Shown: positions 1,369 through 19,278 of the stretch, in pieces
Numbering within the stretch: position 1 is the stretch's first letter
Layout of the letters: each line of letters begins with the position of its first letter
From: a virus
Lineage: Duplodnaviria > Heunggongvirae > Uroviricota > Caudoviricetes
IMG/VR virus record: IMGVR_UViG_2744054962_000004
Strand: one strand, 5' to 3'
DNA length: 28,075 nucleotides
The notes under the pieces: model-generated
What the model was told of the DNA's origin: nothing
Database searches by the model: none
Seen by the model: only the letters and a program-made list of their open reading frames with translations
Translations under genes and position numbers: made by a program

Positions 1369-1444
1369 GCCGATATAGCTCAGTTGGTAGAGCAGCGCAT
1401 TCGTAATGCGAAGGTCGTAGGTTCGACTCCTATTATCGGCACTC
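1369..1444 (+). tRNA. thrW: tRNA-Thr (anticodon CGU)
   Basis: 76-nt cloverleaf: GCCGATA acceptor stem, GCTCAGTTGGTAGAGC D-arm, anticodon loop TTCGTAA (anticodon CGT), GGTTCGACTCC T-arm, TATCGGC 3' acceptor strand. The last 3 nt read CTC instead of an encoded CCA (see findings). Confidence 0.92.
1409..1442 (+). repeat. left att core: 34-bp direct repeat within the 3' half of tRNA-Thr
   Basis: cgaaggtcgtaggttcgactcctattatcggcac is identical to 14987..15020; the copies diverge immediately outside. Confidence 0.85.
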
Positions 1445-2036
1445 ACACAACAAAATCCTTTAAAAACAATATCTTAATGCGATTATCGCTCTCAAGATAC
1501 AATCTTTTTTTAAGGGATTCTATGACCAACAGTTGCCGCTATGGTTAACAGTGGCTACTCAGGGATGTTAGCACGTAGCGGCCTGTAGTTGTAAAGCTCG
1601 AACAGGTACAAAGCGTGAACAGTCCCCACGAACCGCTATCAACTCGAAGCTGATGACGCTGCCAACGTCTCTAAATCCTCCCGAAACAGATTGATCATAC
1701 GCATTTAAGCCCGATGTGCGGCCTTGTGGCTGCGTAAACAGGTGAATAGTGGTAAACGTACCTGCACACGATATGCAGGCTCTGCCAGCGCTTCGCTCAC
1801 GCTCCTGACGGTACACGAGCACCCTGATAAGGTGTGATCCATCTGACAATCTGATGATGTCGCTACGCTCCGCTTGTTGCTTGTACCACTAACGGGGCTT
1901 TATGGCTTCTATTGACTTAAATTAGATAGTTGCAAGGAAATAAACTAAAGATAATTTAAGTGTTGAGCGGTTTACTCGTATTGCTTGAGGGCAGTATCAT
2001 TACAACATTAATGGGATTTTTAAGGGACTGATGTGA

Positions 2037-2672
2037 ATGGCTGAGTATTATCCAGCGGTGTTTGAAGCAGAGGCTTTTAACTGTCCTCACTGTGGTGTTT
2101 ATGCCCGACAATTCTGGCGTAGGATGTATGGCTCTTCAAATGCGCTCCCTTCAAGAGGATCTGAGTTCCGAATGTCATCGTGCGCTCATTGTGATGAAGA
2201 CGCTTTTTGGTATCAGGGCAACATGTTGATCCCTGCGACTGGCAATGTTGAACTCCCAAATCCAGATATGCCCGATGACTGTAAGTCCGACTACATGGAA
2301 GCCAGAAGCATCATTAATCTGTCTCCTAAAGGGGCCGCTGCACTACTTCGTCTATGCCTTCAGAAGTTAATGGTCCACTTAGGCGAACCGGGGAATAACA
2401 TTAACGCTGACATCCGGTCACTCGTTCAGAAAGGACTACCTGTACGTATCCAGCAGGCAGCAGACATCTGCCGTATTGTCGGCAATCAGGCGGTCCATCC
2501 CGGAGAAATTAGCCTTGATGATGACCCGCAGTTGGCACATGGTCTCTTTAAGCTGCTGAACATTATTGTCACTGAGCAGATTACCAGACCCAAAGAGGTT
2601 GAAGAGATGTTCAATAGTATGCCTGAAAGGGCGTTGAAGGGTATTGAAAACAGAGATAAACCTAAAACTTAA
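2037..2672 (+). CDS. zinc-ribbon / DUF4145-like protein (candidate defence-associated cargo)
   Basis: 211-aa ORF with ATG start. N-terminal CPHCG...CAHC pair (CxxC-x-CxxC zinc ribbon). C-terminal region ...[37 protein letters not shown]... resembles the R-x-GN-x-aaH signature I associate with DUF4145. First gene inside the island. Confidence 0.55.
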
Positions 2673-2676
2673 AATG

Positions 2677-2692
2677 AGGGGCTTAAGCCCCT
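2677..2692. terminator. perfect 16-bp palindrome between convergent genes (bidirectional terminator candidate)
   Basis: AGGGGCTTAAGCCCCT lies in the 25-bp gap between the stop at 2670-2672 (plus-strand gene) and the stop at 2698-2700 (minus-strand gene); flanked by A/T-rich sequence. Confidence 0.5.
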
Positions 2693-2697
2693 TTAGC

Positions 2698-3486
2698 TTA
2701 TTCAGAAAACCAAATTTCTGGCCTTCTAAACTCCTTATTCTCAATAAAAAACAGAATATCTTTCCAGACTTCTTCATTTTCTTCCCAGAATTTTTGTTTT
2801 TCATTCATTGTAAGGACTTTACTATCATCTATTAACTTCTTGAGAATAGCAGGGATATCTTTATAGGGTTTTTTCCAGAAGGCATTACGAAATTCTTCAA
2901 TTTCAGCACTTGCATCCCGAACGGGTGTTAGAAGTTCAAGCTGTTTTTCTGTATCGGTAATAGGTTTATTTCCAACCCACTGATGATAGATTTGGCTAGC
3001 TTCTTCATGATGACCCCGAAGAATTGTTATTATTGTCTTTGAGAGTAACGAGCACATGTCAAAAGTAGTAAAGTAAAACCAATCGTGTTTGATTGCGGTT
3101 AATTCATCTTTCTTAACCCCTATTTGTTCAAGTTCACTCGAAATTGAAGATACTAATTTATAAAGATCTTTGTTTGATGTTGCTGTATCTAGGCGTCCGG
3201 TTCTGGAGGCTAATGAAATAGCTACTTCAGAAATAGGTAAGGAAACTTTTCTTAAACTCTCTAAAACTTTTTCAGCATCGTTAATAGTATCTCTTAATTT
3301 TGCCTCCATGCCTAAGAGCTTTATTTCATGCCATTCAAATTGAGTAAGCACCATCAACCCGAAGCCTGTTACAATGACAACAGTCCCTTCAGTTGCTCCT
3401 ATTGTCAGAGTTACAATTACACCAGCGCCTATAAGTAGCAATGCAATGAAAAACAAAAAATTCTTTATCCATTTATTTTTTAGCAT
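2698..3486 (-). CDS. membrane protein with two N-terminal TM helices and a ~200-aa soluble domain, function unknown
   Basis: 262-aa ORF with ATG start. Residues ~10-30 (FLFFIALLLIGAGVIVTLTI) and ~36-50 (VVIVTGFGLMVLTQF) are strongly hydrophobic. Markedly AT-rich compared with the proA-like core, suggesting foreign origin. Confidence 0.6.
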   Translation of the reverse strand: MLKNKWIKNFLFFIALLLIGAGVIVTLTIGATEGTVVIVTGFGLMVLTQFEWHEIKLLGMEAKLRDTINDAEKVLESLRKVSLPISEVAISLASRTGRLDTATSNKDLYKLVSSISSELEQIGVKKDELTAIKHDWFYFTTFDMCSLLSKTIITILRGHHEEASQIYHQWVGNKPITDTEKQLELLTPVRDASAEIEEFRNAFWKKPYKDIPAILKKLIDDSKVLTMNEKQKFWEENEEVWKDILFFIENKEFRRPEIWFSE

Positions 3487-3539
3487 ATCACTGTCACCAT
3501 TACGATTAAATTTGATCCAATATGAAGTAAAGTAAGTAA

Positions 3540-3749
3540 CTATTTTTCGTTCTCTGATGCCTCAAACGTCTTGGAGTGAGGGCAGGACTGTGAGCGCGTC
3601 ACCAGCGTGAACAGATAAATGTTGCTTTCGTAAGTGCAAAGCCGTTTTCCGCCCTGTAACTCTTGTTCGTCGGGGTTGCTCATGGTGATTTTTCCTGCAT
3701 GAGCCGCCAGCGGCAGCAGTGCCACAACAAATAGTAAAATTTTCTTCAT
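3540..3749 (-). CDS. small secreted protein (signal peptide MKKILLFVVALLPLAAHA), function unknown
   Basis: The track ORF 3540..3755 begins at GTG; the in-frame ATG at 3749 gives MKKILLF... with a classic signal peptide and an AHA-G cleavage context. Mature part ~50 aa with two Cys. Confidence 0.45.
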   Translation of the reverse strand: MKKILLFVVALLPLAAHAGKITMSNPDEQELQGGKRLCTYESNIYLFTLVTRSQSCPHSKTFEASENEK

Positions 3750-4729
3750 TTCCACAACCTGCCCTGTAGGTGTCCCGGCTCTTTATCCTCCAAGTTTACA
3801 TTCTCCTGTTGAAAATATCCCCGGCTCTGTTGGTGATCTGCTAGACCGTCAGCCCAGACCCTCGGTGAAAAGCGCTTTTCTTCGCCAAATATCGCTACGT
3901 GATGCCTTCAGCGACACGCCTCACTGCAACAAGCAGTGCAGTTACACAATGCTGCTTTGGGCTGAGGCAAGGGAGATAACTTGATGTTTTGAAGTGCCTC
4001 TGTTCACTAATTGTACAGTCATTTAACATATTGTATCTTGCATGTACTTGACTGGAATGGTCAGGTATTGCTTTTCGGAGCGTTGATGCGAAGCGGGGTA
4101 CACAACAGCGATTTCACCAACAGAAGGAAAGCATTCAGGAGGATTCGAGGTGAGTTCTCTTGTTCAAGGATTTTGGATGAGTTTGCCTGGTCATCAGACA
4201 ATTTCAGGTTTCAGGCCTTTGAAGCTGCCAGCGTGTCAAACCTGCTGAAAGTACAATTTCCTATTTGCCAGCAGAAAAAGAGCTACTACGGCGACGTTAC
4301 CACAACGGGTTGAAGGTCTGCCATCACCTGGTGATATTCACCGAGCCAGGCCGCCACTGTTTCGTACCATTTCCCACAACAATGTAAACAGCCACATCAA
4401 TAGCCCAGCATACGCTCTCAGCGCTGCTCTACGGCGTTATCTCCACACAATCGTGAACTGACAACGCCATGATCCACGACTTCCCATAGCGCGATAGAGG
4501 AGCCTCCAGAGGGGGGTGGTTTTGGTTTTTTGTATGATGTTTTATTTTTTATGGAAAAATGGTTCAGATAGGTGGTTGTGTTTAGCCTCATATCCACCAA
4601 CATATTTAACGCACCCAGCACTGGCGCGGCTTCGTTGTGTAGATCACGACATAACAATCACTACATCCCACAGGCGAGCCAGTGACAACAGACAGGATTT
4701 TCTATCAATTAACAGGTATTAAAGCTCTA

Positions 4730-5101
4730 TTATTTCCCGCCGAAAATCCAACCGATGATGGCACCGATTACCGCAGAGCGGGTCTCACCTGCTGCTCCTT
4801 TGAGAATGTTAATAACTGCATCGCCTGCACCAGGTGCCTGCTGTTGAAGTAAATTCAAACCACGAGGTGTTAACTTGGCGGCGGTGTCCATGTCGGTTGA
4901 AGAGATTATCTCCGTGTAACCCATATCGCTGAGAGCCTGGAGTGTGTTGCACAGCAGGTCAATCTGAGTTCTGTCTCCTCTGGGCTTCCAGCCGAAGTCT
5001 GAAAAATCGAAAGATGAGTAAGCCGGATAGTCCGCAAACAGTTTCACCAGGATTCCAGTTGCCATCTCGTTAAAGCTGTCTTTGCCTTGGACGAATTCCA
5101 T
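4730..5101 (-). CDS. hypothetical protein with a C-terminal glycine-zipper hydrophobic tail
   Basis: 123-aa ORF with ATG start and a good SD (aaggaaa). C-terminus ...GETRSAVIGAIIGWIFGGK is a GxxxG-type amphipathic/TM-like tail. Transcribed divergently from the control region at 5102..5851. Confidence 0.5.
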   Translation of the reverse strand: MEFVQGKDSFNEMATGILVKLFADYPAYSSFDFSDFGWKPRGDRTQIDLLCNTLQALSDMGYTEIISSTDMDTAAKLTPRGLNLLQQQAPGAGDAVINILKGAAGETRSAVIGAIIGWIFGGK

Positions 5102-5129
5102 AATGTTTCCTTTTGTTCACTGATTGAAC

Positions 5130-5300
5130 GAGGTTACTCAGTTACGGCAGGAAGTACCAGTCAGAAGTCATCGGTAACGAATACATATGAAAAGAAGTTT
5201 TCATCGGTAATGGTTACAGATGGGTCATCAGTAACGGTTACGCACCAATAAGATCAATATATTAAGATCAAATAAAAACCATTAAGATCTTTAAAACCTT
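5130..5300. repeat. iteron/operator-like direct repeats in the divergent control region of island 1
   Basis: TCATC(G/A)GTAA(C/T)GG occurs at ~5168, ~5201 and ~5225, with a related GGTTAC motif nearby. A(A/T)TAAGATC occurs at ~5247, ~5261 and ~5281. Confidence 0.5.
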
Positions 5301-5684
5301 AAGGTCAAAGGCAGGGTGAACTGGTGTTCACTAGTTGGTGTTAAGGAGTGATGCTTCTGTATCGCTCTGCTCTGAATGGCTCTGCCACTTCAGATATGTG
5401 TGGAAGACAAGCCGCGAGGCGCGTCAGTCAAATGTGGATCGAGCACGGCGCAGAGGAGCTTTAAACGCGACGTAACTCCCCCCTTGGAGGGGCGGCGGTC
5501 CCCCCTCAATCTCGCAAGGCGATAACGGCCCTCTGATTCTGTGGCGATGCCATGAGGCACAGCGGTCCTGTAACGCTCCCTGTCGCGTTCAGAGCGTCTT
5601 TCTCCTGTTGCTGGTATTTGTACCGCTTCGCTTAGGGCGTTGAATCTTAAGCGTCTGAGAGCGTTTTGTGATAAAGGGATTGAC

Positions 5685-5800
5685 AAAGAAAAGGTATATG
5701 TATAAAGTTGCGGGGTATTGACATAAAACACTTCCATTTCTTTATTCTTTAAGTGAGAAATCGGTTGACAAAGAAACTAATTTATAATAAACTATATATT
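5685..5800 (+). promoter_or_regulatory. promoter region for the 5852.. operon with duplicated TTGACAAAGAAA boxes
   Basis: TTGACA at 5690-5695 and 5765-5770, both followed by AAGAAA, plus a third TTGACA at ~5720; A/T-rich -10 candidates follow each. Exact -10 and start site not resolved. Confidence 0.4.
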
Positions 5801-5851
5801 ATCAACTGAGATGATTTTATGAATAAACAATAACTTAAATAGGAGAGATGC

Positions 5852-6280
5852 ATGGGGAAACCTGTTCTGTTCGATTTCTCGAACGCCACTGCCTCAGAGA
5901 TTGTCGCTGCAATCGATGCAAAAATTACCACAGCTCAAAATCTGCACGCCTTCCGCACTCGTATGGGCGGTGCCAAGAAGGCCGATAAGCTCTATCCAGC
6001 TACTCGCGAAGCACTGAACATCATTAAACGCCTGCGTCAGCAAGCGAAAGACGCAAAAATCATCCGGGATATTCTTAAACCATACTCAGCAGAGTTGGCA
6101 AAAGGCCGTGATGTTATGGAAATCATTGAACCAGTACTCTCTGCCTGGCGTGTCTATTACGCTTCTCATGGCATCGGCTTGATGAATGAACAGATCCTTC
6201 TGCTTAAGATGATTGAGTCTGGCGGTGAACTCGAAGGCATTACCGGAAAACCCATTCCAGAACTGACCACAACCGAATAA
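5852..6280 (+). CDS. hypothetical protein, first gene of the island 1 rightward operon
   Basis: 142-aa ORF with ATG start and SD AGGAGA 5 nt upstream; no recognisable motif. Confidence 0.55.
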   Translation: MGKPVLFDFSNATASEIVAAIDAKITTAQNLHAFRTRMGGAKKADKLYPATREALNIIKRLRQQAKDAKIIRDILKPYSAELAKGRDVMEIIEPVLSAWRVYYASHGIGLMNEQILLLKMIESGGELEGITGKPIPELTTTE

Positions 6281-6409
6281 CCATTCTCTGCTTTACACCG
6301 TTGGCAGCAACGCCACCAAACGAAATCGCCGCAAACACGGCTTCTTACTCCTGATCGCCATCCGCGATAGCAGGAGCGATAACTATTATGCATTCGGGGG
6401 GAACTTGAT

Positions 6410-6601
6410 ATGAATTTGAAGATTCAACAGCACGTATACGCCGGACTTTTAGAAGAAGCGAAGCGCCGGGGAACAACTGTTCCAAACCTTGCACGCGAAG
6501 TGCTAGAAATCGCCGCCCATCTTTTTGATAACGGTGAACCTTTACCCGCCTTGGGGAATATTAATGGAGATAATAATGAACAAAAGAGCGTCGCAAAATA
6601 A
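6410..6601 (+). CDS. small hypothetical protein (63 aa), possibly DNA-binding
   Basis: ATG start, weak SD. Its 3' end overlaps the start of the next gene. Function not recognisable. Confidence 0.4.
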   Translation: MNLKIQQHVYAGLLEEAKRRGTTVPNLAREVLEIAAHLFDNGEPLPALGNINGDNNEQKSVAK

Positions 6602-7376
6602 ACCAGAACTATGGATTGAAGAAGATCGCCGCCTTTTCTATGCAGATGCAATCACAATTAAGTCCACTGGTGAATGTTTCAAAGTCGAGGATAAACTTGC
6701 AAAGATCCATACCTATATGGTGGATCAATACAACAGCTACCAGGCTGATGGTAAGAGTTTCTACGAAGATCAGCGCGATATCGCGACTAAATGTAAATGC
6801 ACACCAAAAACTCTTGGCAAGTGGCTGAAAGTTCTTCAAGCACTTGGTCTACTTATCATTGATGAGAGCCAGAAGAGCCACTCTTACACGGTGCGGTCAG
6901 TAGTCAGCCAGGAACACAACTTGATTTTCAGCTATCCGAAATTGTTGAACGGCAAGCCGTCATACGACCATGAAGAGACGCTTAAACGCCTTTATGCATC
7001 TCAGGGACGTAGGAACGTAAAAAATCATCAGCCAAAAACCGAAGAGAGCGGTAAGAGTGAGCAGAAACGTGATGTGGAATCTTTCATGGTGGGATCTGCC
7101 GCGCCTGCTGCTGGAAAACCAGACGGCATACCTGCTGTGGATATTCCTGTCGATGTTGATTTATCCGGTAGTGATGATCCATCACTGAGTGATTCAAATG
7201 GGAGAAATGTCGTTGAGTTCCCGCGAAATTGTAGACCCAAACCCAGTTTTAAATTTGTAGCCCCAGATGATGACGACCACGAGGAAATCCATCAGGAGCA
7301 GGAAACCTTTATTGAGCCAGATGTTTGCCACGAACCAACGCCGGAAGAAATTGACGCTGCGGTAGCTCTTATGTGA
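6576..7376 (+). CDS. putative replication initiator / winged-helix DNA-binding protein with acidic C-terminal tail
   Basis: The track ORF begins at TTG 6525; the in-frame ATG at 6576 has SD GGAGA 5 nt upstream. Segment ...FYEDQRDIATKCKCTPKTLGKWLKVLQALGLLIIDESQKSHSYTV... is a helix-turn-helix plus wing pattern. C-terminus is strongly acidic (DDDDHEEIHQEQE...). Island 2 has a protein of the same architecture at 19503..20072. Confidence 0.55.
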   Translation: MNKRASQNKPELWIEEDRRLFYADAITIKSTGECFKVEDKLAKIHTYMVDQYNSYQADGKSFYEDQRDIATKCKCTPKTLGKWLKVLQALGLLIIDESQKSHSYTVRSVVSQEHNLIFSYPKLLNGKPSYDHEETLKRLYASQGRRNVKNHQPKTEESGKSEQKRDVESFMVGSAAPAAGKPDGIPAVDIPVDVDLSGSDDPSLSDSNGRNVVEFPRNCRPKPSFKFVAPDDDDHEEIHQEQETFIEPDVCHEPTPEEIDAAVALM

Positions 7377-7388
7377 TGGAGGAATGAA

Positions 7389-7865
7389 TTGTGTGAACAC
7401 GTAAGCGGTGTACTGACCGCAGATGAAGAACAAAAGCTATCTCGCCTTTTCTCCGTCTTGGAGAATCCGACATATAAATCCCGGTCCAAACCATCCGACT
7501 TGGAAACACAACGTAAAGCCCGTTTGCTATTGAATCGTGGGTTTTCACTGCAAATTGTCGCAAATACACTAGATCTTCCGTTTGCTGAAGTCTGGCGGCT
7601 CGCACGTCAAAAACAAGCGGTGACCTGGGCGATGATGACACCGACAGCCCGGACAGAATTTGTCCGTGAAATGTGGTCACATCGGATGCACCCGGAACAG
7701 ATCCGCAAGCGTTGCGATGGTCTGTCATACGTAAGCCTTCGATATTACCTGCATAACGCCGGGATCACTGACGCTGAAATGTTGGGTTACTACCCAGACG
7801 TGTTCGCGAATATCTGCAAGTTGCCGACAGTGAAGAAGAAGCGCACTAAGCGTAAATCCAAATAA
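7389..7865 (+). CDS. hypothetical protein with basic C-terminal tail (possible DNA-binding / small-terminase-like)
   Basis: 158-aa ORF starting at TTG 7389 with strong SD GGAGGA 5 nt upstream (no in-frame ATG near the 5' end). C-terminus KKKRTKRKSK. Confidence 0.45.
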   Translation: MCEHVSGVLTADEEQKLSRLFSVLENPTYKSRSKPSDLETQRKARLLLNRGFSLQIVANTLDLPFAEVWRLARQKQAVTWAMMTPTARTEFVREMWSHRMHPEQIRKRCDGLSYVSLRYYLHNAGITDAEMLGYYPDVFANICKLPTVKKKRTKRKSK

Positions 7866-8030
7866 TCCCACATCGGGAGCCAATGAACTTTGAAGCAATC
7901 TTTTCTTACCTGCCCGTTGTCTGGCTGGCGTATCGCTGCGTCTATGATGGGCTGATCCTCTTGCTGCGAAGCAGTGACGTTGCCCGTCATCGCCTTGCGA
8001 CAAATATCCTACTTTGGAGACTCCATAAAA

Positions 8031-8363
8031 ATGAAAAACGTAAACGACATCCGCGCCGATATTCTCGCCGCAATGCAGGCCGCTGCCGAACCGGAGAGCG
8101 GAGATCTGAATAAAAGCGCCGAGCAGGTGTTGGCTGATGCCATCGAGGGATATCTGACCGCTTCGACTGCAACAGCCAGCAAATCAGCCCCGAAAGCAAA
8201 GACCATAAAGGAAAAAGGGATCGCTCTGTGCCACCAGGCCCAAGGTTATAGCGCTAATCTGCGTCCGGTAAGTCTCATGATGAAGGCAAGTCTTGATGAG
8301 CTAACACCTGAACAACGCGCCGCGCTTGAGCGTCTGGGTTACGATATCAATCAGGGGGTGTGA
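8031..8363 (+). CDS. hypothetical protein (110 aa)
   Basis: In-frame ATG at 8031 inside the GTG-initiated track ORF 7974..8363. Stop TGA 8361-8363 overlaps the start of the next gene (TGATG), suggesting translational coupling. Confidence 0.45.
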   Translation: MKNVNDIRADILAAMQAAAEPESGDLNKSAEQVLADAIEGYLTASTATASKSAPKAKTIKEKGIALCHQAQGYSANLRPVSLMMKASLDELTPEQRAALERLGYDINQGV

Positions 8364-10510
8364 TGTCTGGTAATATTATAGTTAGCACCCTAACAAACCG
8401 AGTGGTCTGGGATGTCGATCAGACAAGTTACGGCAAAGCCTTAAAGGCTGTTAAATCCATCAAAGCTGCTCACGAGAAGCCCGCTAAAGCGCTGGAGAAG
8501 GCCCAGAAGAGGACCGCTCAGATGGAAGGCAAGGCTTCACTAGCATCGGCTAAGGCTCAGACAGCGAAGCTCCGCCAGGCTGAACAATTGTCAAAACAGC
8601 AACAGAAACAAGCTCAGATACAAGCCAAAATGGAGCGGGACGCAATCGCCCACGCCAATAAAATGACCTCATTACAGGCTCGCCAGTTATCTCAGCAGGA
8701 GCAGGCAGCACGGCAGAATGCCCGTTTAGCAGCGATTTCTGCAAAAGTGCAGGCCGCAGCCAGATCACGAGCGATGACCTACAACCCAAACATGGGCGGT
8801 CAACATTACGATCCTGGTCTTGTTTCCCGCCAGACTGACGCAATGAACCGTGGTCACGGCGCTGTTGCTGCCGACATTGCAGCCACTAAAAGGGCTATGG
8901 CCTTAGAAGAAAAGCGCCAGCGTGAGAAAGAGGCCAGTCTTAAACGCCAGAGCACTGCATACGATACTCTGCGCCGTGCCAGTTTAACTATCAGTCATAT
9001 CGAAGGCGCTAGCCTGGCTGACAAGATGAAAGCTGTGCAGGCAATCAAAGAGGCTACCAAGGGATACTCCGAGCAGCGTTACACCATCGCAGAAATGCGC
9101 CATGAACTTGCTAAAGCGACTCTGGAAACCAGGCGGCAGGCACGTATTAACCGCCAGATTGTTAAAGATAAAGCGAAAGCCAAGCGAGCAGGGCGCATCA
9201 ATGCTCAACGTCTGACCAGTGAACGTAGCGAACGTGGTTATGGTGGCCTCGCTGCTACTGGTGTAATTGCAGGTGGTTCCCTGATTGGCTCAATGGGGGT
9301 TGCTCGTGTTGGTCAGACACTACAGGGCAGTGTTGAACGCAACCAACAGATGAAGGCTTTACAGTCTCAAGGCATCTCACGTCTTGAATATGAAGCTGTG
9401 CGCGATGTTGTCGCCAACAAAACCGGCTTTAATATTTCTCCAGACAAAGCCCTTGATTTTTCTGCTGACTATAACGACAAAGTGGGCCAGTTGACGGCTA
9501 ACGGAACATGGAAGACCAACAAAAACGGTCAATCAACGTTGTCCGGTGGTGGTGAACTTGGTGACCTTATCAACGCTATTGCAGGCAAATCCAACGTTGC
9601 CACGGCAAAGCGCGTTGTTAAAGAACTCCAGGGTATCGACTTTAATCTCTTCCTTGTGTACCTCAAGCAATTGCAGAAGACTTTTAAGTTCACGGATAAA
9701 GAAACAGCCGCTTTTGCAGAAGCGATCAACGACGCAAGCAAGATCCTTCCGGCATTTGCTGATGGTGGTGAAGCTGTTCAGAAACGTATGGATGACCTCG
9801 CCCGGAATGGTTACGCCCTGAGCGAAGCACAACAGGAACAGCTAAACCGCCTAAGCGCTCTCTCTGTTGAATATTCAAGGATCAACGATTCGTTGAGTGA
9901 TATTTTCAGCTCAGGTTTTGCTGATGGGTTGGGAGAGGTTGGCAAGAACACTTCCAGCTTTAGCAAAGGTATGGCTGGCCTCGTTCCTATTATGGATAGT
10001 TTGGGGAAGGCTGTAGGCCAGGTGACTGCTGATATGTTGTTATTTGCCGGACGGGTGGGCCAACGTGTTAACGAGGGTGCAACACTTCCGGATGCAGTCT
10101 ACAACACCGTTGTGGATGATTCCGCAAACGGTGCTGCCGATTGGATTAAGGAAAAGACCGGCTTTGATCCACGTAGCATCGGTCAGACGCTTAAGCAGAT
10201 TTACCCGTGGCTAGATAGTTCAGCACCAAGCAATATCGGCTCAGGCACAGCGTATAACGATCCAGCGCTAGCGTTGAATGTTCCAGGTCTAAACTATCAA
10301 ACACCCCAGCAACCAACGTTTACGGTTCCGACAATTGATAGCATAGTTCAGCGACAGCCGATTCCTGTTGCGGTCACTGGCGAAGCTGAGATTAAACTCT
10401 CACCGCTTGATATTAACGTGAATGACGGCGCTATTAACGGTTTGATTGATACAAAACTGAGGAGCTATGAGCAGGCACAGAACAACATGATCCTTGGTAT
10501 TGCTCAATGA
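8363..10510 (+). CDS. large coiled-coil protein with Gly-rich hydrophobic segment (tape-measure-like or scaffold-like phage structural protein)
   Basis: 715 aa from ATG 8363, SD AGGGGG. N-terminal ~300 aa are K/A/Q/R-rich heptad-like sequence. Central GGLAATGVIAGGSLIGSMGV hydrophobic Gly-zipper. N-terminus and architecture parallel the 613-aa protein of island 2 (24151..25992). No Walker A motif. Confidence 0.6.
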   Translation: MSGNIIVSTLTNRVVWDVDQTSYGKALKAVKSIKAAHEKPAKALEKAQKRTAQMEGKASLASAKAQTAKLRQAEQLSKQQQKQAQIQAKMERDAIAHANKMTSLQARQLSQQEQAARQNARLAAISAKVQAAARSRAMTYNPNMGGQHYDPGLVSRQTDAMNRGHGAVAADIAATKRAMALEEKRQREKEASLKRQSTAYDTLRRASLTISHIEGASLADKMKAVQAIKEATKGYSEQRYTIAEMRHELAKATLETRRQARINRQIVKDKAKAKRAGRINAQRLTSERSERGYGGLAATGVIAGGSLIGSMGVARVGQTLQGSVERNQQMKALQSQGISRLEYEAVRDVVANKTGFNISPDKALDFSADYNDKVGQLTANGTWKTNKNGQSTLSGGGELGDLINAIAGKSNVATAKRVVKELQGIDFNLFLVYLKQLQKTFKFTDKETAAFAEAINDASKILPAFADGGEAVQKRMDDLARNGYALSEAQQEQLNRLSALSVEYSRINDSLSDIFSSGFADGLGEVGKNTSSFSKGMAGLVPIMDSLGKAVGQVTADMLLFAGRVGQRVNEGATLPDAVYNTVVDDSANGAADWIKEKTGFDPRSIGQTLKQIYPWLDSSAPSNIGSGTAYNDPALALNVPGLNYQTPQQPTFTVPTIDSIVQRQPIPVAVTGEAEIKLSPLDINVNDGAINGLIDTKLRSYEQAQNNMILGIAQ

Positions 10511-10940
10511 TGAAACAGAGGGTGGCGAATTCGTCGCCCCTATCTCAACACCGCAATGCGTATGTATCAAATTTAGCGACAAATCAAATACTTTTCGTGA
10601 AATTTATTGTAAATAATAATCATTCGTGTTAAAATAATATACAAGGTGAATTACAACAGCCAAATGTCATTCCCTTCTATAAAGCAGGCTCTGTGACACC
10701 GTGGAGCCTCTTTTGTGATGTGTCGCTTCCAGCCTCTCACTGGACGTTTGCCAACGGGCGGTACATCACAAAAGATTCGCCCTAGGGCGTACAAAGTCTG
10801 GGCCTCTGGTCTGGATTTGCCATTAAATCCGGCTCTCCTCCGGTCATCAGCCATGATGCAAACTGGCTCAGGTGTTCAGCGTTTGAGGCTCCTTACCTCT
10901 TGGATGGCGCTGATCACCTTCTCATTCCTACCAGTGAAAT

Positions 10941-10975
10941 TGACTCCGGACGACTCTCCGTCGGGTCACTTTTTT
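10941..10975 (+). terminator. candidate Rho-independent terminator inside the 570-bp intergenic gap
   Basis: tgactccggacgac / cgtcgggtca imperfect stem followed by cTTTTTT (10969-10975). Confidence 0.4.
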
Positions 10976-11078
10976 CATCGGAACAATTCGAAAGGCTGGC
11001 CCTGTTGCCGTTTACGGCTCAAGCAGGCGCTGGCCTTTTGTTTACATAGCTATGTGAAATTTAACGGGAGTTAATAAT

Positions 11079-11420
11079 ATGAAAATGGGAACAACTGAAC
11101 GTTCTTACAATGACGCGATCGCGTATGCAATCGATCCGAATTTTGACCGCAAGACTATTACCGTCGATCTGGCTGTAGAAGTCCAGCCGGGTAGTTGCAT
11201 TACCAGCGCTGGGGCTGCTTATGTCTCTGGTGATGACTGCCTGCTGGTTCTGAGCCACCACAGGGCCGAAGATGCTGCTCATATCATCGTTGCTGATCGC
11301 GGGATTTACATCAAACAAGACACCATCGTCGCTGTTATGGGCGCTACCGCTGGCGCTAATGCTATTGCCGCACTCACCAAAACGGGCGCAATCCGTACCA
11401 GCGCACCGGACGCAGAATAA
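11079..11420 (+). CDS. small phage-structural-like protein (head-decoration-like or tail-terminator-like)
   Basis: 113-aa ORF with ATG start, Ala/Gly-rich, directly upstream of the 344-aa protein. The same small/large pair recurs in island 2 (22334..22717 then 22732..23763). Assignment rests on size and order only. Confidence 0.45.
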   Translation: MKMGTTERSYNDAIAYAIDPNFDRKTITVDLAVEVQPGSCITSAGAAYVSGDDCLLVLSHHRAEDAAHIIVADRGIYIKQDTIVAVMGATAGANAIAALTKTGAIRTSAPDAE

Positions 11421-11438
11421 TAATAAGGAGAAGACAAC

Positions 11439-12473
11439 ATGGGACTATCAACCAATTTCAGCTACGCGGATTACACCAATACCTTTGTTAACATGGATGC
11501 AAAGAACACTTTGCTGTCCACGCTTAATGTTTTCAATGATCGACAGACTTCGGCTAGTCCAAAGGTCAGCCTTGATATCATTGATGAAGTAGCCCAGAAG
11601 GTGGCAAGCTCTGTTAATCGTTACGGCTCTGAGTGGTCCAGCATTCCTAAGCGTAGCTCTAGCAATCACCTTATCGAAGCTCCGCTTTATGCTTATCAGG
11701 ACCGTATTACAGCGGCAGACGTGCAACCATACCGCAAACCAGGTTCCGACCTGCAAATGTCTGTAATGGATGCGGTCACTTCTTCTGCTGTCGCAATGCA
11801 CGATAAGTACATGCGTACCCGTGAGCGGATTTTTGCTGATGCGCTTTTTCGTAATACCGTCGAAGCGACCTACACCCAGCAGCCAATCATTTCCTGGGAA
11901 GATGAATTTGGATACCAACAGGCAACCGGGACAATCAAAACCAGCGTTAGCTCTGGTGACCCACTTCGCAGCCTCGATGATGCAGTAACCGCTGCTAAAG
12001 TGCGCATGGGGGGCCTGGCTGGTCAGCTTGATGGATTTATCCTGTTTGCAGGTAGCAATGTTTATCGCGGCATTAAGTATCACCCTGATGTTCGTCAGAA
12101 TGTTCAGTTCGGTGTGCTTGATCGGGATGTTCTGTTTAATAAAGAAGTGCTTCCGGCATTCTCAACATTCATCATTGAAAATGTTCGAGTGGTGGAGGTC
12201 ACGGATCAGGCACTATACGGAATTGGTCCGGATGAATCCTTCCTGGTTCCACGCTTTAGCAAACCGCTGTCTTCGGATATTGCTCTGCCCTTCGGTTATG
12301 TGGCAACGGCTACCAGCCGCAATCTTGATCTGGCATTTGCTGATCCGGTTGATTTCCGTATCTGGAGCGTACAAGACAAGTTTAAGAACGTTGAGCTATT
12401 CGCGGAAAGCTCTATCTTGCCTGTTGTGTACCGCCCGGATTTCACTACACGACTGACGAACGACGCAGCGTAA
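11439..12473 (+). CDS. phage-structural-like protein, ~344 aa (major-capsid-E-like or major-tail-like)
   Basis: ATG start with SD AAGGAG 8 nt upstream. N-terminal region is similar to the island 2 343-aa protein (STNFSY...NTLLSTLNVFND vs STYFGV...NTLITNLDLFDV). Size and pairing with the upstream small gene mirror the lambda D/E arrangement, but fold not verified. Confidence 0.5.
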   Translation: MGLSTNFSYADYTNTFVNMDAKNTLLSTLNVFNDRQTSASPKVSLDIIDEVAQKVASSVNRYGSEWSSIPKRSSSNHLIEAPLYAYQDRITAADVQPYRKPGSDLQMSVMDAVTSSAVAMHDKYMRTRERIFADALFRNTVEATYTQQPIISWEDEFGYQQATGTIKTSVSSGDPLRSLDDAVTAAKVRMGGLAGQLDGFILFAGSNVYRGIKYHPDVRQNVQFGVLDRDVLFNKEVLPAFSTFIIENVRVVEVTDQALYGIGPDESFLVPRFSKPLSSDIALPFGYVATATSRNLDLAFADPVDFRIWSVQDKFKNVELFAESSILPVVYRPDFTTRLTNDAA

Positions 12474-12554
12474 GACAGCGGATTTTGGGGCTGACTATTT
12501 GGCCCCACCGTGAAGAATTGCCTGAAAAGGCGAGGCAAAGAAGAGGTGATTAGT

Positions 12555-12758
12555 ATGAAAATTCAATTTCAGACGAATAACGGTTTCCCGTTGCTGACTG
12601 TTGCAGACGAGCGCGTTTTAGATTTTCTGAACGTTAGCGCCGTGTGTCGGTTCCTGAAGGTTCCGCGCTCCTCGTTCATGATGAACGTTGAGCAATACGG
12701 GCTTGAAAAGGCAATCAGTGAAGCCCTGCTGAAGTTAAGAAAGAATAAAAATTGTTAA
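12555..12758 (+). CDS. small hypothetical protein (67 aa)
   Basis: In-frame ATG at 12555 with SD AAGAGG 8 nt upstream, inside the GTG-initiated track ORF 12510..12758. Confidence 0.4.
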   Translation: MKIQFQTNNGFPLLTVADERVLDFLNVSAVCRFLKVPRSSFMMNVEQYGLEKAISEALLKLRKNKNC

Positions 12759-12917
12759 TATTCAATATGTTGTTGTTTGTTGTCAAAAGAATCATTGTGT
12801 TTGTTTTTCGCGCATTTACTTGACACCCTGATGTAGATTGCGTAACCTTCACATAAAACTATTGCCTGCGATGTGTTCAGGTATTGTCGGAAACCCATCT
12901 TTAACCGAGGAGGTAAA

Positions 12918-13076
12918 ATGGCTATCACAAGTAGTATGTTTGGTCGCACCATCCTGACTGGTAAGGATGCTGAACAAATGCTCAAGCAGATGAGCAACGC
13001 TAAGCCTAACGATAAGGCTAAGCGTTCTTTAGAAAATGCTCGTCAGCTCCGCCAAAAAATGGCAAAAAAAGCATAA
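12918..13076 (+). CDS. small protein (52 aa), possible ribbon-helix-helix regulator or antitoxin partner of the downstream GNAT gene
   Basis: ATG at 12918 with excellent SD GAGGAGG 4-5 nt upstream. Predicted short strand then helices (RTILTGKDAEQMLKQM...). Lies 30 bp upstream of the GNAT-like gene. Confidence 0.5.
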   Translation: MAITSSMFGRTILTGKDAEQMLKQMSNAKPNDKAKRSLENARQLRQKMAKKA

Positions 13077-13106
13077 TAAAAACTAAGGGCAGGTTGTTAA
13101 ACGAAA

Positions 13107-13685
13107 ATGGATGATGTGTTACAACCTGACCTTCAGATTCTTCCCCTAAATCATTTCCATAACCACAAACGTTTCAGCAGTGGTTCAGAAGAATTCCAAC
13201 CTCTTAAATCTTTTCTTCAGAAAGATGCTTTATTATTTCAAGATGGTTGTATAGCTCAAACTTATGTTGTTGTTGATGACAACATGCGGAAGGATAAAGA
13301 AGAGCCTCTCGAAACATTCCCTCATAAAGTATTAGGTTATATAACGCTGACTTGCAGCCAAGTTAACCTTAAAGAATATGACTTAGGGGACTGTGTTCGT
13401 GCAAATACGTATGAGTACTTACCTGCCGTCAAGATTGCCCGTTTAGCTGTGGATGCAAAGTGTCGGACTGGCGGGATCGGTTCAATGCTGTTCGAATACG
13501 CCTTATTAATGTCATTGGATGATATTCGCCCTATGGTTGGGTGCAGGTTCTTGATAACCGATGCTAAGAGAAGTGCCATGGATTTTTATTATAAAAAAGG
13601 GATGGAGCTTCTTGATACGCAAGAAAATCAAGAGGCTGACCACCCCATAATGTTCATCGATCTTTTCACATTACTTGAAAACTGA
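13107..13685 (+). CDS. GNAT-family acetyltransferase, candidate GNAT-type toxin (TacT/AtaT-like)
   Basis: 192-aa ORF. ...LPAVKIARLAVDAKCRTGGIGSMLFEYAL... matches the GNAT acetyl-CoA-binding motif A (R-x-x-G-x-G after a beta strand). Preceded by a small ORF in toxin-antitoxin-like order. 3' end overlaps the integrase 3' end by 20 bp (convergent). Confidence 0.6.
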   Translation: MDDVLQPDLQILPLNHFHNHKRFSSGSEEFQPLKSFLQKDALLFQDGCIAQTYVVVDDNMRKDKEEPLETFPHKVLGYITLTCSQVNLKEYDLGDCVRANTYEYLPAVKIARLAVDAKCRTGGIGSMLFEYALLMSLDDIRPMVGCRFLITDAKRSAMDFYYKKGMELLDTQENQEADHPIMFIDLFTLLEN

Positions 13686-14871
13686 TCATCTCCACATACC
13701 CCGATAGCTCCCTCATCCCCGCGCCAGCGCTGTACGTTCTGAAACTCTCCGTTTTGCCTCGCTCATGGCCCACGATTAGGGCGATCCTGTCTTCTGGTAC
13801 ACCATGCCGATCAAGCTGGCTGATAAACATTCCTCGCAGACTATGAAACACCTTCCGCTCCGTGCCTTTCTCACCCAACGCTTTACGTTTAGCCCGTGTA
13901 AATCGCTGTGTATGCCACGTTGAGCGCTTGCCGTCTGCACGTTCGGTGATGCTGGCATGGTAGAACAGAAAGCCGTTGTGGTTGTTCTGGATGAGGTTTT
14001 TAATCAGTTTCGTCAATCGGCTATGAATTGGAACCAGGCGAGCCGCATTGCGTGTCTTACCCTCCGTCACATCGAAACACCATACCCCCTCAACGGTTTT
14101 GATATTGCTGATTTGCAGAGAGCAGATTTCGTTAAGGCGCATACCGCTATACATTCCCACTATCGCAACGGCTTTCATCTCTTCATCAAGCATCGCATAC
14201 ACCTTAGCCAGTTCGTCACCGCTAAAGGGTTCGTAGCTTTCTCGATCATGGCGCACGTCCAGTTTGTGGCCCGTGAATACATTGGCTTTCGGTGCGTCGT
14301 GATAGCGGTTTTGGGCTTGTGCCACTAGTTGGGACAGACAGCCAAGATAATTCGCCAGTGTCTGGCTGGCTTTCTCCTGCTTGGCGCTGTCTAACCAATC
14401 GGTGACCATAGTCCTGTTGATTTCCTGCAACTGGAAATCCTTACGCCGGAAATGAGCCGTGAAGACCTCCACCGCCTTAATGTACTTGCTCAGGGTAGAC
14501 AGCTTGCGCCTGTCACTGTGTTGGACAATAAATTCATCCCGCAGTTGAACAAGGGAGGGACACACACGAGCCGTGGCGAAGTCTATCCCATTATTTTGGC
14601 TTACATGCTGGTTGATAGAGCGCAGTTCCACCAGGACGCGATCGACACTGTTACGTTGGGGTTTTGGCTTGAGTCGGTCTCTGATAGCAAAAAATTCGTG
14701 CATGACTTTGTCACGAATGATTCGGGCTTCCCTGATATCTGCCGTGCCAGTTGTACGCATGAATGCTGTTCGATTCCCAAAAAGGGAACGCATATAAGGC
14801 GGAATAGTGACCTTGACGGAGTACACCGAAGAGTTTTCTTTAACAAGGTACGCATTAGGCTTGTATTTCAT
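13666..14871 (-). CDS. tyrosine recombinase / phage integrase (island 1)
   Basis: 401-aa ORF with ATG start. Box I region ...GMRLNEI..., then ...KVFHSLR..., ...GHERGKTESFRTY... consistent with the R...HxxR...Y catalytic signature. Sits next to the att repeat and shares a 49-aa identical block with the island 2 integrase. Confidence 0.9.
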   Translation of the reverse strand: MKYKPNAYLVKENSSVYSVKVTIPPYMRSLFGNRTAFMRTTGTADIREARIIRDKVMHEFFAIRDRLKPKPQRNSVDRVLVELRSINQHVSQNNGIDFATARVCPSLVQLRDEFIVQHSDRRKLSTLSKYIKAVEVFTAHFRRKDFQLQEINRTMVTDWLDSAKQEKASQTLANYLGCLSQLVAQAQNRYHDAPKANVFTGHKLDVRHDRESYEPFSGDELAKVYAMLDEEMKAVAIVGMYSGMRLNEICSLQISNIKTVEGVWCFDVTEGKTRNAARLVPIHSRLTKLIKNLIQNNHNGFLFYHASITERADGKRSTWHTQRFTRAKRKALGEKGTERKVFHSLRGMFISQLDRHGVPEDRIALIVGHERGKTESFRTYSAGAGMRELSGYVEMISFQVM

Positions 14872-14986
14872 CTTTCCCCCGATCTAATATTCAGGGGCAA
14901 CTGTGATCAGTTGTGTCAGTTTTGCCTTTCAGGAGCAGCGCATACGGTTCGAAGAATCAATGACTTGTGAAACACGTCATTGGAAT

Positions 14987-15022
14987 CGAAGGTCGTAGGT
15001 TCGACTCCTATTATCGGCACCA
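14987..15022 (+). repeat. junction att core: displaced 3' fragment of tRNA-Thr (with CCA) between island 1 and island 2
   Basis: cgaaggtcgtaggttcgactcctattatcggcacCA: identical to tRNA positions 41-74, followed by an intact CCA end; no 5' half present, so not a functional tRNA. Confidence 0.85.
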
Positions 15023-15628
15023 TCAAGAAAATCAATAACTTAGCTTAACTTCTCTAAGAAATTGTATCTTCTGTTATCACTTACAAACGCCTATACGTTG
15101 TTATGGGCTTTGGTAGTGTAACACGTATGGGCGAGTAGTTCCCAGGCTCAACCTCGTAACAAGTTCCTTTGAAGCTGGAAGACGTGCCACCGTCTCTAAA
15201 CCTTCTACCAAAACTCTTAGCAAGATGTTCCACACCTGGCGCGGTGTCCAATGATGCTACACGTCGTGAGACGTTGCAGAGGATAAACAGGCTAAATGAT
15301 GGGAAGAGTTTTAAGTGCAATAGTGGATCAAAGCCCACCTCTTCAAAACCTAACTTGATCGGGAAAGAATCAAGCTCTAGCACGGTTTCGTCCACCGGAG
15401 TACAACGGGTGCCTGATAAGAGAAGAACTGCTAAGACTTCATAGCTTTTGTGAAAAAGCCCTTTTTAGTGGATACGCCTACGGCGCTTATTTTTTGGTAT
15501 AACCATCAAAGGCGCTTTATGGCTCCTATTGTCTTGAAAATGTATCTTTACTTGTATTGTGTTTTATGCGTAGTCTCCCTGTGTAGTATGTAACTTGTTA
15601 ATTTTCATATGAATACAGAGGCAACACG

Positions 15629-15781
15629 ATGAAAAATATTGCAGCTATCAAACGTAATAACCGCAAGATTCACGCTCGTAAGTTCCTGTCTACGCCAGAA
15701 GGAAAAGCCTGGCTAGAGCGTAAACAGAGAGAGAACGAAGAAAGAAAACTCCTTAGTGAGTTGAAATGGCTTAAGGATTGA
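15629..15781 (+). CDS. small basic protein (50 aa), function unknown
   Basis: ATG 15629 with SD GAGG 7 nt upstream, stop TGA 15779-15781; absent from the ORF track because it is under 60 aa. MKNIAAIKRNNRKIHARKF... is highly basic. Confidence 0.4.
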   Translation: MKNIAAIKRNNRKIHARKFLSTPEGKAWLERKQRENEERKLLSELKWLKD

Positions 15782-15791
15782 ATCACCAGTA

Positions 15792-15833
15792 GGCGCATAA
15801 CACATCCAGCGATCAAAGATGTGTTTATGCGCC
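15792..15833. other. long near-perfect hairpin (15-bp stem) between convergent mini-ORFs
   Basis: GGCGCATAACACATC (15792-15806) pairs with GATGTGTTTATGCGCC (15818-15833) with one bulge and an 11-nt loop; no U-tract on either side. Confidence 0.5.
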
Positions 15834-15847
15834 TGATAGTGAAATTA

Positions 15848-16006
15848 TTAAAGTCGTTTAGTTAACATCGCCATTGCTTGAGCAATAATTGCAACAGCGT
15901 CCATCTCTTCACTGGAAGCGATGCAAATGCGGTAACTAATAGCCACAATGAATACATCAATAACGAGAAAGTGAATAGTGTGAAGATGTTTTGAAAGTAA
16001 ATGCAT
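15848..16006 (-). CDS. small hydrophobic protein (52 aa), function unknown
   Basis: ATG at 16006 with strong SD GGAGG and 5-nt spacer; my reverse-strand translation is MHLLSKHLHTIHFLVIDVFIVAISYRICIASSEEMDAVAIIAQAMAMLTKRL. In a different frame from the TTG-initiated track ORF 15862..16071. Confidence 0.4.
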   Translation of the reverse strand: MHLLSKHLHTIHFLVIDVFIVAISYRICIASSEEMDAVAIIAQAMAMLTKRL

Positions 16007-16400
16007 AACTTCCTCCGGTTTTGGGATAGGAGGATTAGAACATGCATTAAATGATGTTGCAAGAATGGCAATTTACCCTAATAGTCTACTATTCACCTCA
16101 ATCTACGTCAACCAATATTTGATGTAGATTTAATTTTCTTTTAAAAACAATATGTTGTTATTTGTTGAATTTTGGGGTTAGGTTGTTTTTTGAACGTTTT
16201 CATCAAGTGTAAAGATACGTTTAGCCTTCATAGTGAGTTCAGTTACTGTCTTTTTCTCTGAAATCGGCGCAAACGTGATCATCGCTTGAGGTTGCTGCTC
16301 TTACTTCTCAAATTGTGATGGAGAACGATAAAGGTTAGAGGGCACTTTTATTTTTTTAAGCAAGTGTATAGCATAAGAATAATCTAAAAAGGGAGGTTAT

Positions 16401-16952
16401 ATGCGCAGGTCTGCATTTGTGAGGATGATGATTTTTACAACGTTGTTTGTAGGGGGAACTTCTACCGCAGTTGCTAAAAACTGCAAAAAAGGAATACCTT
16501 GTGGTAACTCGTGTATAGCTGTTGGTAAGACGTGCCGGATTGGCTCTTATGCCCCTTCATCTTATAAAAATCATTCATACTCTTATCCTTCATCCTCTAT
16601 TCGAAGCTCGCAATCAAATAATTCACGAAAAACTGAAGGAGTGAAAACGACTCCTGCTGCCAAAAATTATCTTTGCCAATACTCTATTGCATCAATCGAA
16701 AACGGACGTTTAGGGGCATTACGTGTTCAGGGATACGCACAAGTAACTTTATATGCAGATAGCTTCAAGGCTAACAGATTAAATGGAACATATTTGATAT
16801 CGCCAAAACTGAATGCTAACGGCAAGTTTATGATGGCAGATGATAAAAGCAAGGTTTATGCTTATGATTCTTGGCTATTAAATTTTGCAATAAGCGATCG
16901 TATCACAAGAACGACAGAACAATGGGATCGATGTAAGCTCAATCAAAAATAA
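16401..16952 (+). CDS. secreted Cys-rich protein (signal peptide), function unknown
   Basis: 183-aa ORF with ATG start and SD GGGAGG. N-terminal signal peptide (MRRSAFVRMMIFTTLFVGGTSTAVA) followed by CKKGIPCGNSCIAVGKTC cysteine cluster and a Ser/Tyr-rich linker. AT-rich. Confidence 0.55.
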   Translation: MRRSAFVRMMIFTTLFVGGTSTAVAKNCKKGIPCGNSCIAVGKTCRIGSYAPSSYKNHSYSYPSSSIRSSQSNNSRKTEGVKTTPAAKNYLCQYSIASIENGRLGALRVQGYAQVTLYADSFKANRLNGTYLISPKLNANGKFMMADDKSKVYAYDSWLLNFAISDRITRTTEQWDRCKLNQK

Positions 16953-18080
16953 CAGTTAGAGAAGCTCTTGTAGAGGCATTATTGAGTTATTGGTTTTAAT
17001 ATTTTTGTGCCTCTATGGGCTTTTTTTGCCTTTTTGCAATGTAGAAGAGAGCACAGGAATCGTTAAAATTAATTATTGGGGTATTTAAGGTTATTTTCAG
17101 GTGATTTAAGGGTATTAAACGTAATTTAAGTGATTAAAATATAAACAGGTTGTTCTGTATCTTATTGATTTATAAGGTTGTTTTCAAATAAAGGTAAATA
17201 AAAAATAAATAGCCATAAATAGCTATAAATACATCTAAATACATATGAATCCCCTCCCTTATGGCTAGATTGCGAGAGGTGCTTAACGCGATTTTCAGCG
17301 CCCCCCGATCTGGAAAATCCAGAATCCCCAAATATCAGCAAGGAATTTTCTTGCGTAATCAACATCGTTTTTACCTATTAAATCATTACACAGAAAGCCT
17401 TTCTGTAATGTCTCTCACTAAACTTTCACTAAACACGAGAATGATCGGTTTTATGTCGGATCAGATGCTAGAAACAGCACCACGTCTCACAAGGGCTGTA
17501 AGCGATGAAACCAGTGTTTATGCGGGTGCAGGTCAAAATATAGGCCAAAATACATTTAACATAATAATCGTAATATGCACTAAGGAACACATAGAACGCC
17601 TTGAGTTGATGTATCAGGGGAAAAATGGTGTATTTTTTACGTAGGAGCACGAGAGGGCTTCTATTGACTTTTGTATGCTATGAAATATAATAGAAGATTT
17701 TTTATTTTTATGTTGATAGTGATTGCACATTAAAGATTGAAAGCAAATTTAAACATAAATTTTCAACACGTGAAAGAACTTGTTCAACAAATGATAGAAC
17801 GTTTATTGAGCAACAATTTTGCAGTGATGCGCTATATGCCGCATAACATAAGGCTTTGCTGATGATGACGCAAAAGTGAAGAAAGTAAGAATTGCATTTT
17901 GAAGCCATTTTTCTTGGATTTTTTAGTATGGAATTACACAGGGATTAATCATCAATTAATCTTGAATTTAAGCTTGTTTTAGATGTTTAATTTTTGATAG
18001 CAAGAAAGACTTTTACTGATTATAAGAAGATCATTGCACAGATGTTATGTGATGGATGTAACGGTAGGTCACTGTGAGCT

Positions 18081-18217
18081 ACCCCCACAGAATTCTGTTA
18101 TCCTTAACTTTTAAAGAAATATGCACCCTAACAGAAAACTGTTACCCCAACCCTAACAGAATTATGTTAGACACCCCCACAGAAAACTGTTAGCCACCCC
18201 TACAGAATTTTGTTACC
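18081..18217. repeat. five iteron-like direct repeats (~22-23 bp), candidate replication origin or operator array
   Basis: acccccacagaattctgttatcc (18081), accctaacagaaaactgttacccc (18125), ccctaacagaattatgttag (18151), acccccacagaaaactgttagcc (18172), acccctacagaattttgttacc (18195). Consensus CCCYMACAGAAWWNTGTTA with internal dyad ACAGAA..TCTGT; four copies are tandem at ~23-bp spacing. Confidence 0.7.
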
Positions 18218-18908: not shown

Positions 18909-18937
18909 TTGACAAAAGCCTTTAGTCGTGGTAAAGT
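18909..18937 (+). promoter_or_regulatory. sigma70-like promoter for the island 2 rightward operon
   Basis: TTGACA (18909-18914), 17-bp spacer, TAAAGT (18932-18937), about 120 bp upstream of the first ATG (19059). Confidence 0.4.
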
Positions 18938-19259: not shown

Positions 19260-19278
19260 AGAAGAGAAGGAGAAAACT

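Follow-up and report, generated by a model that had tools for sequence, protein, structure and literature searches.

A probable natural allele of the phage-defense protein RAZR as the first cargo gene of a thrW-integrated island

RAZR and its described relatives

RAZR is the new name for PD-T7-4 (Zhang et al., Nature 2026, PMC13017515), a single-protein phage-defense system that was found functionally in Escherichia coli (Vassallo et al. 2022, PMC9519451) and whose mechanism and cryo-EM structure have been published under the new name (Zhang et al., Nature 2026, PMC13017515). The fusion of a zinc ribbon to DUF4145, together with the HEPN nature of DUF4145, was catalogued in 2013 (Anantharaman et al., PMC3710099). 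Under its own native promoter, RAZR-Ec protects against the phages T3, T7, SECphi18 and SECphi27, and its overproduction alone is not toxic (PMC13017515). Its triggers, which it binds directly, are Gp77 in the case of SECphi27 and the portal protein in that of T7, T3 and SECphi18; Gp77 is an Erf-like recombinase that forms 24-mer rings, the portal proteins are dodecameric, and the rings of both are about 170 Å in diameter (PMC13017515). Free RAZR forms linear oligomers, and the cryo-EM structure displays 24 copies, organized as 12 dimers, around the Gp77 ring, with the zinc fingers pointing inward and the HEPN dimers outward (PMC13017515). The activated protein cuts mRNA, tRNA and rRNA, accepting single-stranded RNA and neither double-stranded RNA nor DNA; translation halts and the infection aborts (PMC13017515).

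The zinc finger is the most variable region of RAZR, and its exchange between RAZR-Ec and RAZR-Kv, the protein of Klebsiella variicola, exchanges their phage ranges (PMC13017515). In RAZR-Ec, the zinc-finger residues in contact with Gp77 are R29, Y31, R35, T41 and E43; the R35E mutation abolished defense, and mutation of R35 or T41 weakened or abolished it (PMC13017515). The interface between dimers is formed by V21, D179, D180 and R184, and oligomerization was impaired by D179K, by D180K and in the double alanine mutant, while R146 and H154 proved experimentally critical (PMC13017515).

The island protein and its relation to RAZR-Ec

The gene analyzed here belongs to a window, the whole stretch of viral DNA under analysis, of 28,075 nucleotides (IMG/VR record IMGVR_UViG_2744054962_000004). 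Its coding sequence extends over 2037..2672 on the + strand, from an ATG start to a TAA stop, and encodes 211 aa in an intact frame. A Shine-Dalgarno-like AAGGGA at 2022-2027 stands 9 nt 5' of the ATG, and the G+C content of the gene is 47%, compared with 55% for the neighboring core gene proA. A GC-rich, terminator-like hairpin (AGGGGCTTAAGCCCCT, 2677..2692, not assigned to a strand) separates it from a convergent gene of 262 aa.

A first-pass annotation of the sequence had described the product as a zinc ribbon combined with a DUF4145-like region and had proposed a profile search as a check, and both halves of this description held. The Pfam DUF4145 model matched residues 88-163 (2298..2525, +), the DUF4145/HEPN core, with E=1.1e-13 and 51.4 bits, well above its gathering cut-off of 23.1. 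Two CxxC pairs, C16/C19 and C49/C52, provide the four cysteines of a zinc-finger domain that covers residues 1-65 (2037..2231, +). Zinc-ribbon Pfam models yielded sub-threshold matches only, and it is the identity of this region to the zinc-finger domain of the RAZR chain in PDB entry 9Y9C that confirms the ribbon. The GN-x-x-H motif of the same annotation requires a small correction: a GN followed by a histidine is present, but the spacing had been counted one residue short. The actual GN-x-x-x-H belongs to the HEPN motif R146-x2-G149-N150-x3-H154 (RIVGNQAVH), whose catalytic codons are CGT at 2472-2474 for R146 and CAT at 2496-2498 for H154, both on the + strand. The protein thereby shares with the DUF4145 HEPN family both the R...H catalytic dyad and the listed zinc-ribbon fusion architecture, although its R-x7-H spacing is wider than the canonical Rx4-6H of HEPN domains.

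More precise knowledge about the protein comes from two comparisons. The PADLOC model PDLC04109, which represents PD-T7-4, aligned residues 1-209 with positions 1-209 of its 211 (E=6.4e-102, 337 bits). Against all PDB sequences, a single match was obtained, to 9Y9C, which is listed as “DUF4145 domain-containing protein” (E=9.6e-125, residues 1-208 without a gap); this entry, which accompanies the publication on RAZR (Zhang et al., Nature 2026, PMC13017515), contains 24 copies of the RAZR chain in the RAZR-Gp77 complex. RAZR-Ec itself (PD-T7-4 of E. coli UMB1727; PDB 9Y9C/9Y6U) belongs to the same length class and has the same two-domain layout as the island protein, and the two are identical at 178 of 208 positions (85.6%). 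The four zinc cysteines, R146 and H154 are all conserved between them. On the basis of these sequence likenesses, we consider it very probable, at about 93%, that the island gene is an orthologue, that is, a natural allele, of RAZR, a single-protein abortive-infection system, carried here as island cargo and with its mechanism assigned by identity.

The defense system is already known, and the island gene is one more natural allele of it. The proposal of a single-gene defense or abortive-infection sensor was right as to the kind of system, which matches RAZR, but its supposed novelty did not survive the literature, in which PD-T7-4 was described in 2022 and RAZR in 2026. The experiments that had been suggested (cloning under the native promoter, challenge with a panel of coliphages and active-site mutation) have likewise largely been done on the 86%-identical orthologue (PMC13017515). 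That RAZR seems undescribed from annotation alone is explained by its database labels: the RefSeq protein of an identical island, WP_061092833.1, is called just “DUF4145 domain-containing protein,” and NCBIfam holds no model for the RAZR family.

Fusions of DUF4145 to restriction endonuclease or helicase modules are frequent, as is its presence in restriction-modification operons (PMC3710099), so that the protein could be read as an auxiliary or regulatory part of a restriction-modification system. However, it is a stand-alone protein and a full-length orthologue of a single-gene system, and neither the larger ORFs of the island, as searched with Pfam and PHROGs, nor the RefSeq annotation of the identical island include a methyltransferase, restriction endonuclease or helicase, which makes such a role barely credible.

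Taking the island gene as RAZR, its 86% identity to the UMB1727 protein allows the published mechanism to be proposed for it. In the uninfected cell, island RAZR would be held as inactive linear oligomers. During infection, the N-terminal Cys4 zinc finger would bind ring-shaped phage proteins of about 170 Å; 24 copies would wrap around the ring, and the resulting curvature would switch on the C-terminal DUF4145/HEPN dimers with their R146 and H154. The active dimers would then cleave single-stranded mRNA, tRNA and rRNA without sequence specificity, leading to a stop of translation and to abortive infection.

Distribution and particular features of the allele

DNA identical to positions 1930-2700 occurs in 22 of the 5426 complete E. 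coli genomes and is intact in every one of them, as would fit a functional RAZR gene. Another 275 of the 5426 genomes match this interval less closely, 271 with an identity of 80-90%, and in the examples inspected the lower-identity allele lies directly after a 536-aa integrase at tRNA-Gly (glyU), with an overlap of 8 nt. For instance, the glyU-linked allele of strain 582 (WP_000852870.1) is 89.4% identical to island RAZR over 208 residues, with a HEPN core that is 100% identical; it overlaps the 3' end of the 536-aa integrase by the tRNA-Gly gene, has a longer tail (219 aa) and is without the RNA-like element that precedes the island gene.

Homology between island RAZR and the integrase-linked allele starts just ~20 nt 5' of the ATG, and a tblastn search of both integrases against 1443-2040 returned nothing, which disposes of an integrase remnant upstream of the gene. 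Taken together, these two observations indicate that the RAZR gene moved as a bare cassette and that its promoter is different from that of the studied locus. The sole candidate promoter directly upstream is a weak sigma-70-like site, TTTACT-18-TATCAT at 1971..2000 (+), from a scan in which four sites were found against 4.7 expected by chance.

The 30 substitutions that separate island RAZR from RAZR-Ec over 208 residues are concentrated mainly in the zinc finger, with 14 of 65 positions changed, and in the C-terminal tail. Identity is accordingly 78.5% for residues 1-65, 97.8% for residues 85-175 and 63.6% for residues 176-208, whereas the linker (residues 66-79) is unchanged in length, with A68T and N81D nearby. 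Among the residues that contact the trigger, R29, Y31 and E43 are kept, while R35 and T41 are replaced (R35N, T41G); among those of the interface, V21 and R184 are kept, while D179T and D180E are changed.

Four positions that are functionally sensitive in RAZR-Ec (35, 41, 179 and 180) are therefore all altered in the island allele, which could indicate a RAZR relative that is no longer defensive, an inactive passenger in which R35N, T41G, D179T and D180E block trigger binding or assembly. We regard this as improbable, since the reading frame is intact and 100% conserved across the 22 genomes, the HEPN core is 98% identical to that of RAZR-Ec with its catalytic residues retained, and natural variation in this family is greatest in the zinc finger, where swaps retarget defense rather than destroy it. 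In addition, the T179-E180-Q181 sequence also occurs in the glyU allele of strain 582, one of the ~275 lower-identity matches, so D179T and D180E are probably tolerated.

A functional RAZR with a shifted trigger range is the reading that we prefer for this allele. Because most of its substitutions fall in the zinc finger that sets specificity, R35N and T41G included, its phage range may differ from that of RAZR-Ec and is likely unlike it. A described precedent, set beside the island protein here by description, is RAZR-Kv of the same family, in which a divergent zinc finger retargets defense (to T5, T7, SECphi18 and Lust) and the HEPN domain is kept (PMC13017515).

The thrW island and its tandem neighbor

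The integration target is thrW, a tRNA-Thr(CGT) gene at 1369..1442 (+) identified by ARAGORN and by the Rfam tRNA model (71.8 bits). The two ends of the island are marked by exact 34-nt repeats: attL at 1409-1442 (+), which comprises the last 34 nt of thrW, and attR at 14987..15020 (+), which carries the displaced native 3' end of thrW (GGCACCA). A tyrosine integrase at 13666..14871 (-), recognized by Pfam Phage_integrase (E=7.5e-19) and annotated as such in RefSeq, occupies the attR end. Between attL and position 2037 there is no credible gene, and RAZR is thus the first gene inside attL of this 13.6-kb thrW-integrated element, just as the first-pass annotation had placed it. The PD-T7-4 gene and its homologues frequently overlap one for an integrase, as reported by Vassallo et al. 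(2022, PMC9519451); island RAZR is instead the first gene at the integrase-distal end, behind the RNA-like element.

The thrW gene as rebuilt by the island ends in GGCA-CTC-A (1441-1446) with no encoded CCA, whereas the native end at attR reads GGCA-CCA (15019-15024). The tRNA genes of E. coli normally encode their CCA, so this thrW would rely on trimming followed by CCA addition.

The 13.6-kb island is intact in the same 22 E. coli genomes that carry the RAZR allele, and, beyond the RAZR cassette and the RNA-like element upstream of it, nothing in E. coli is closely related to it at the DNA level. Its other products include a DUF6945/HTH_36 protein that weakly resembles replication initiators, a major capsid protein of the lambda-E type and a GNAT acetyltransferase. 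A 715-aa protein (8363-10510, +) belongs to no Pfam or NCBIfam family and gives weak PHROG matches to tape-measure proteins. When the island proteins tested were searched with NCBIfam and, for RAZR and its 262-aa neighbor, with PADLOC, only RAZR and the integrase received names.

The 262-aa gene (2698-3486, -) is convergent to RAZR and shares the 2677-2692 hairpin with it; it has a G+C content of 35%, and its product bears an N-terminal membrane segment and fits no Pfam, PADLOC, PHROG or NCBIfam family. A copy of this protein with 90% identity resides in the equivalent slot of another locus that bears the RNA-like element (L062), and other instances of the slot (L009, L067) contain comparable proteins that combine a transmembrane segment with a helical region, so the gene may be a further cargo or defense candidate. 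The neighbor also bears on the idea that RAZR serves chiefly to stabilize the island, as a toxin or addiction module, rather than to act against phages. HEPN RNases are common as toxins of toxin-antitoxin systems (PMC3710099), and the gene does sit on a mobile element; nevertheless, no adjacent gene resembles an antitoxin, the neighbor being convergent, 262 aa long and membrane-anchored, and RAZR-Ec alone is non-toxic and requires a phage protein for its activation (PMC13017515). An addiction role is for these reasons very improbable.

A second element of ~13 kb stands in tandem with the first, at 15024-28075, and repeats the layout of 1443-15020: an att site, an RNA-like element, variable cargo, HTH or replication-type genes, the gene for a capsid-like protein of ~343 aa and, farthest from the start, an integrase. 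A flotillin-like protein and a Dit-like baseplate protein are present in addition in the second element. The capsid-like proteins of the two elements are 24% identical and their integrases 46%. Within the integrases (13669-14871, - and 26801-28075, -), however, a stretch of ~45 residues is 100% identical (FLFYHASITERADGKRSTWHTQRFTRAKRKALGEKGTERKVFHSLR), a sign that the two neighbors may recently have undergone gene conversion or recombination with each other. Each of the elements resembles a phage satellite. No fit was found when placing them in the P4-like, PICI, cfPICI or PLE families, and a literature search on the satellite family of the island, or on a large tRNA-adjacent RNA in enterobacterial satellites, returned nothing relevant.

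A conserved RNA-like element in front of the cargo slot

The interval between attL and RAZR contains a conserved RNA-like element of ~380 nt (~1535..1914, +), supported by covariation and located ~90 nt 3' of the target tRNA. Its 3' domain (1698-1923, +) scores 237 bits with a covariance model (R1), and its extension to ~1535-1914 follows from two additional covarying helices on the 5' side (1535-1543/1574-1582 and 1595-1601/1654-1661, +). The ~1700-1914 segment matches 1164 of the 5426 E. coli genomes with an identity of 72-90%; the matches are spread over several loci and also occur on plasmids, and among those listed the majority lack annotation. An exact-pattern scan located the element in 14 contigs of IMG/VR and in 51 genome contigs, almost all of them assigned to genera of the Enterobacterales. 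Some 42 of the 73 copies lie 220-300 nt downstream of the end of a same-strand tRNA gene (Thr-CGT, Gly-CCC or Leu-CAA).

Two ORFs in the gap between attL and RAZR, 1568..1849 (-) and 1705..1842 (-), were not accepted as genes, since every frame is interrupted by indels in related copies. These frame-breaking indels, together with the replacement of some hairpins by longer ones, indicate that the element is non-coding.

The structural evidence comes from a covariance model that was built from 7 copies and recovers all copies at 110-250 bits. Across 71 distinct sequences, 92.5% of the cells in the tested helices hold standard pairs, compared with 33-45% in slid controls, in which the 3' partners are displaced by 1-3 columns, and double-sided changes occur in 20 pairs, compared with 4-9 in the slid controls; these values are to be read in light of the fact that the 71-sequence alignment was fitted to the model, which favors the structure, a bias that the slid controls share in part. 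The observed values for pairing and covariation were reached in none of 500 shuffles. Among the cells that are not Watson-Crick pairs, G-U (267) far exceeds A-C (44), which points to a + strand RNA with the orientation that the tRNA and the cargo gene also have.

Other approaches were less informative. Single-sequence folding of 1699-1916 gave z scores of -0.95 (+) and -0.54 (-), which are uninformative, so that the support for the structure rests on covariation and not on folding energy. Plain MAFFT and alifold on 35 copies, which have hairpins of variable length, produced no usable structure, and a naive covariation scan over all columns was swamped by clade structure. A long-range closing helix (AAGCCC/GGGGCUU) is paired in 83.9% of its cells, and one of its pairs fails in 30 sequences, which gives it moderate support; in the 3' hairpin drawn by RNAalifold, the distal changes in one copy (L006) are, as judged by eye, uncompensated.

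Among the 4227 covariance models of Rfam, only tRNA reached its gathering threshold, and at E<=10 the sole match within 1443-2100 was a chance one to Fluoride (10.9 bits, cut-off 34). The ROOL and GOLLD RNAs are large, ornate and conserved RNAs of mobile and viral elements that often adjoin tRNA genes. The element upstream of RAZR resembles them in kind only, with no match to their sequence or structure in Rfam at E<=10, and it differs from ROOL and GOLLD in its host clade (Enterobacterales) and in its smaller size of ~380 nt.

The canonical glyU locus of RAZR is without this element, and the element precedes many unrelated genes, such as those for an AbiJ_NTD4 protein, two HNH nucleases and a Mrr-type endonuclease (Mrr_cat), among others; small proteins with an RNxxxH motif and membrane proteins also follow it. 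At several of the loci that bear it there are also relatives of genes from the two tandem elements (capsid-like, Dit-like, flotillin-like and integrase), and a weak second copy of the element (25 bits, E=2e-5) occupies the matching position in the second tandem element, at 15379-15540 (+). The RNA-like element is a feature of the island backbone that marks a variable cargo slot, and it is not specific to RAZR. The premise that the position just inside the att site of such islands houses antiviral genes gains support from this variable slot, whose contents include nuclease- and Abi-type genes.

In four loci (L024, L026, L028 and L060), a second and weaker copy of the element is found 0.7-2 kb downstream on the same strand, which reflects either decayed tandem integrations or one copy per cargo cassette. 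As for the role of the RNA, it may be processed from tRNA read-through, form a leader for the cargo or belong to the element as an RNA of its own. Through it, cargo expression might be tied to read-through from the promoter of the host tRNA, and with that to the integrated state, or else to the element's induction.

Joining both halves of the analysis, we advance only tentatively, and with more doubt than confidence, the combined proposal that this RAZR allele may sense ring proteins other than those recognized by RAZR-Ec and RAZR-Kv and sits in a cargo slot defined by an apparently undescribed class of structured + strand RNA of ~380 nt, placed at the attL end of a family of satellite-like elements that encode a capsid and integrate at tRNA genes in Enterobacterales.

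For the defense system itself, the island allele adds little, given that the discovery, the trigger, the structure and the mechanism of RAZR have already been published. With a generic RefSeq name and no NCBIfam model, RAZR will keep being “rediscovered” by readers of annotation alone. Natural zinc-finger variants like island RAZR nevertheless offer material for mapping the evolution of RAZR specificity. The RNA-like element could matter more: it may be a new RNA class, and it may also be a useful landmark for mining single-gene defense candidates in the tRNA-adjacent slots of Enterobacterales.
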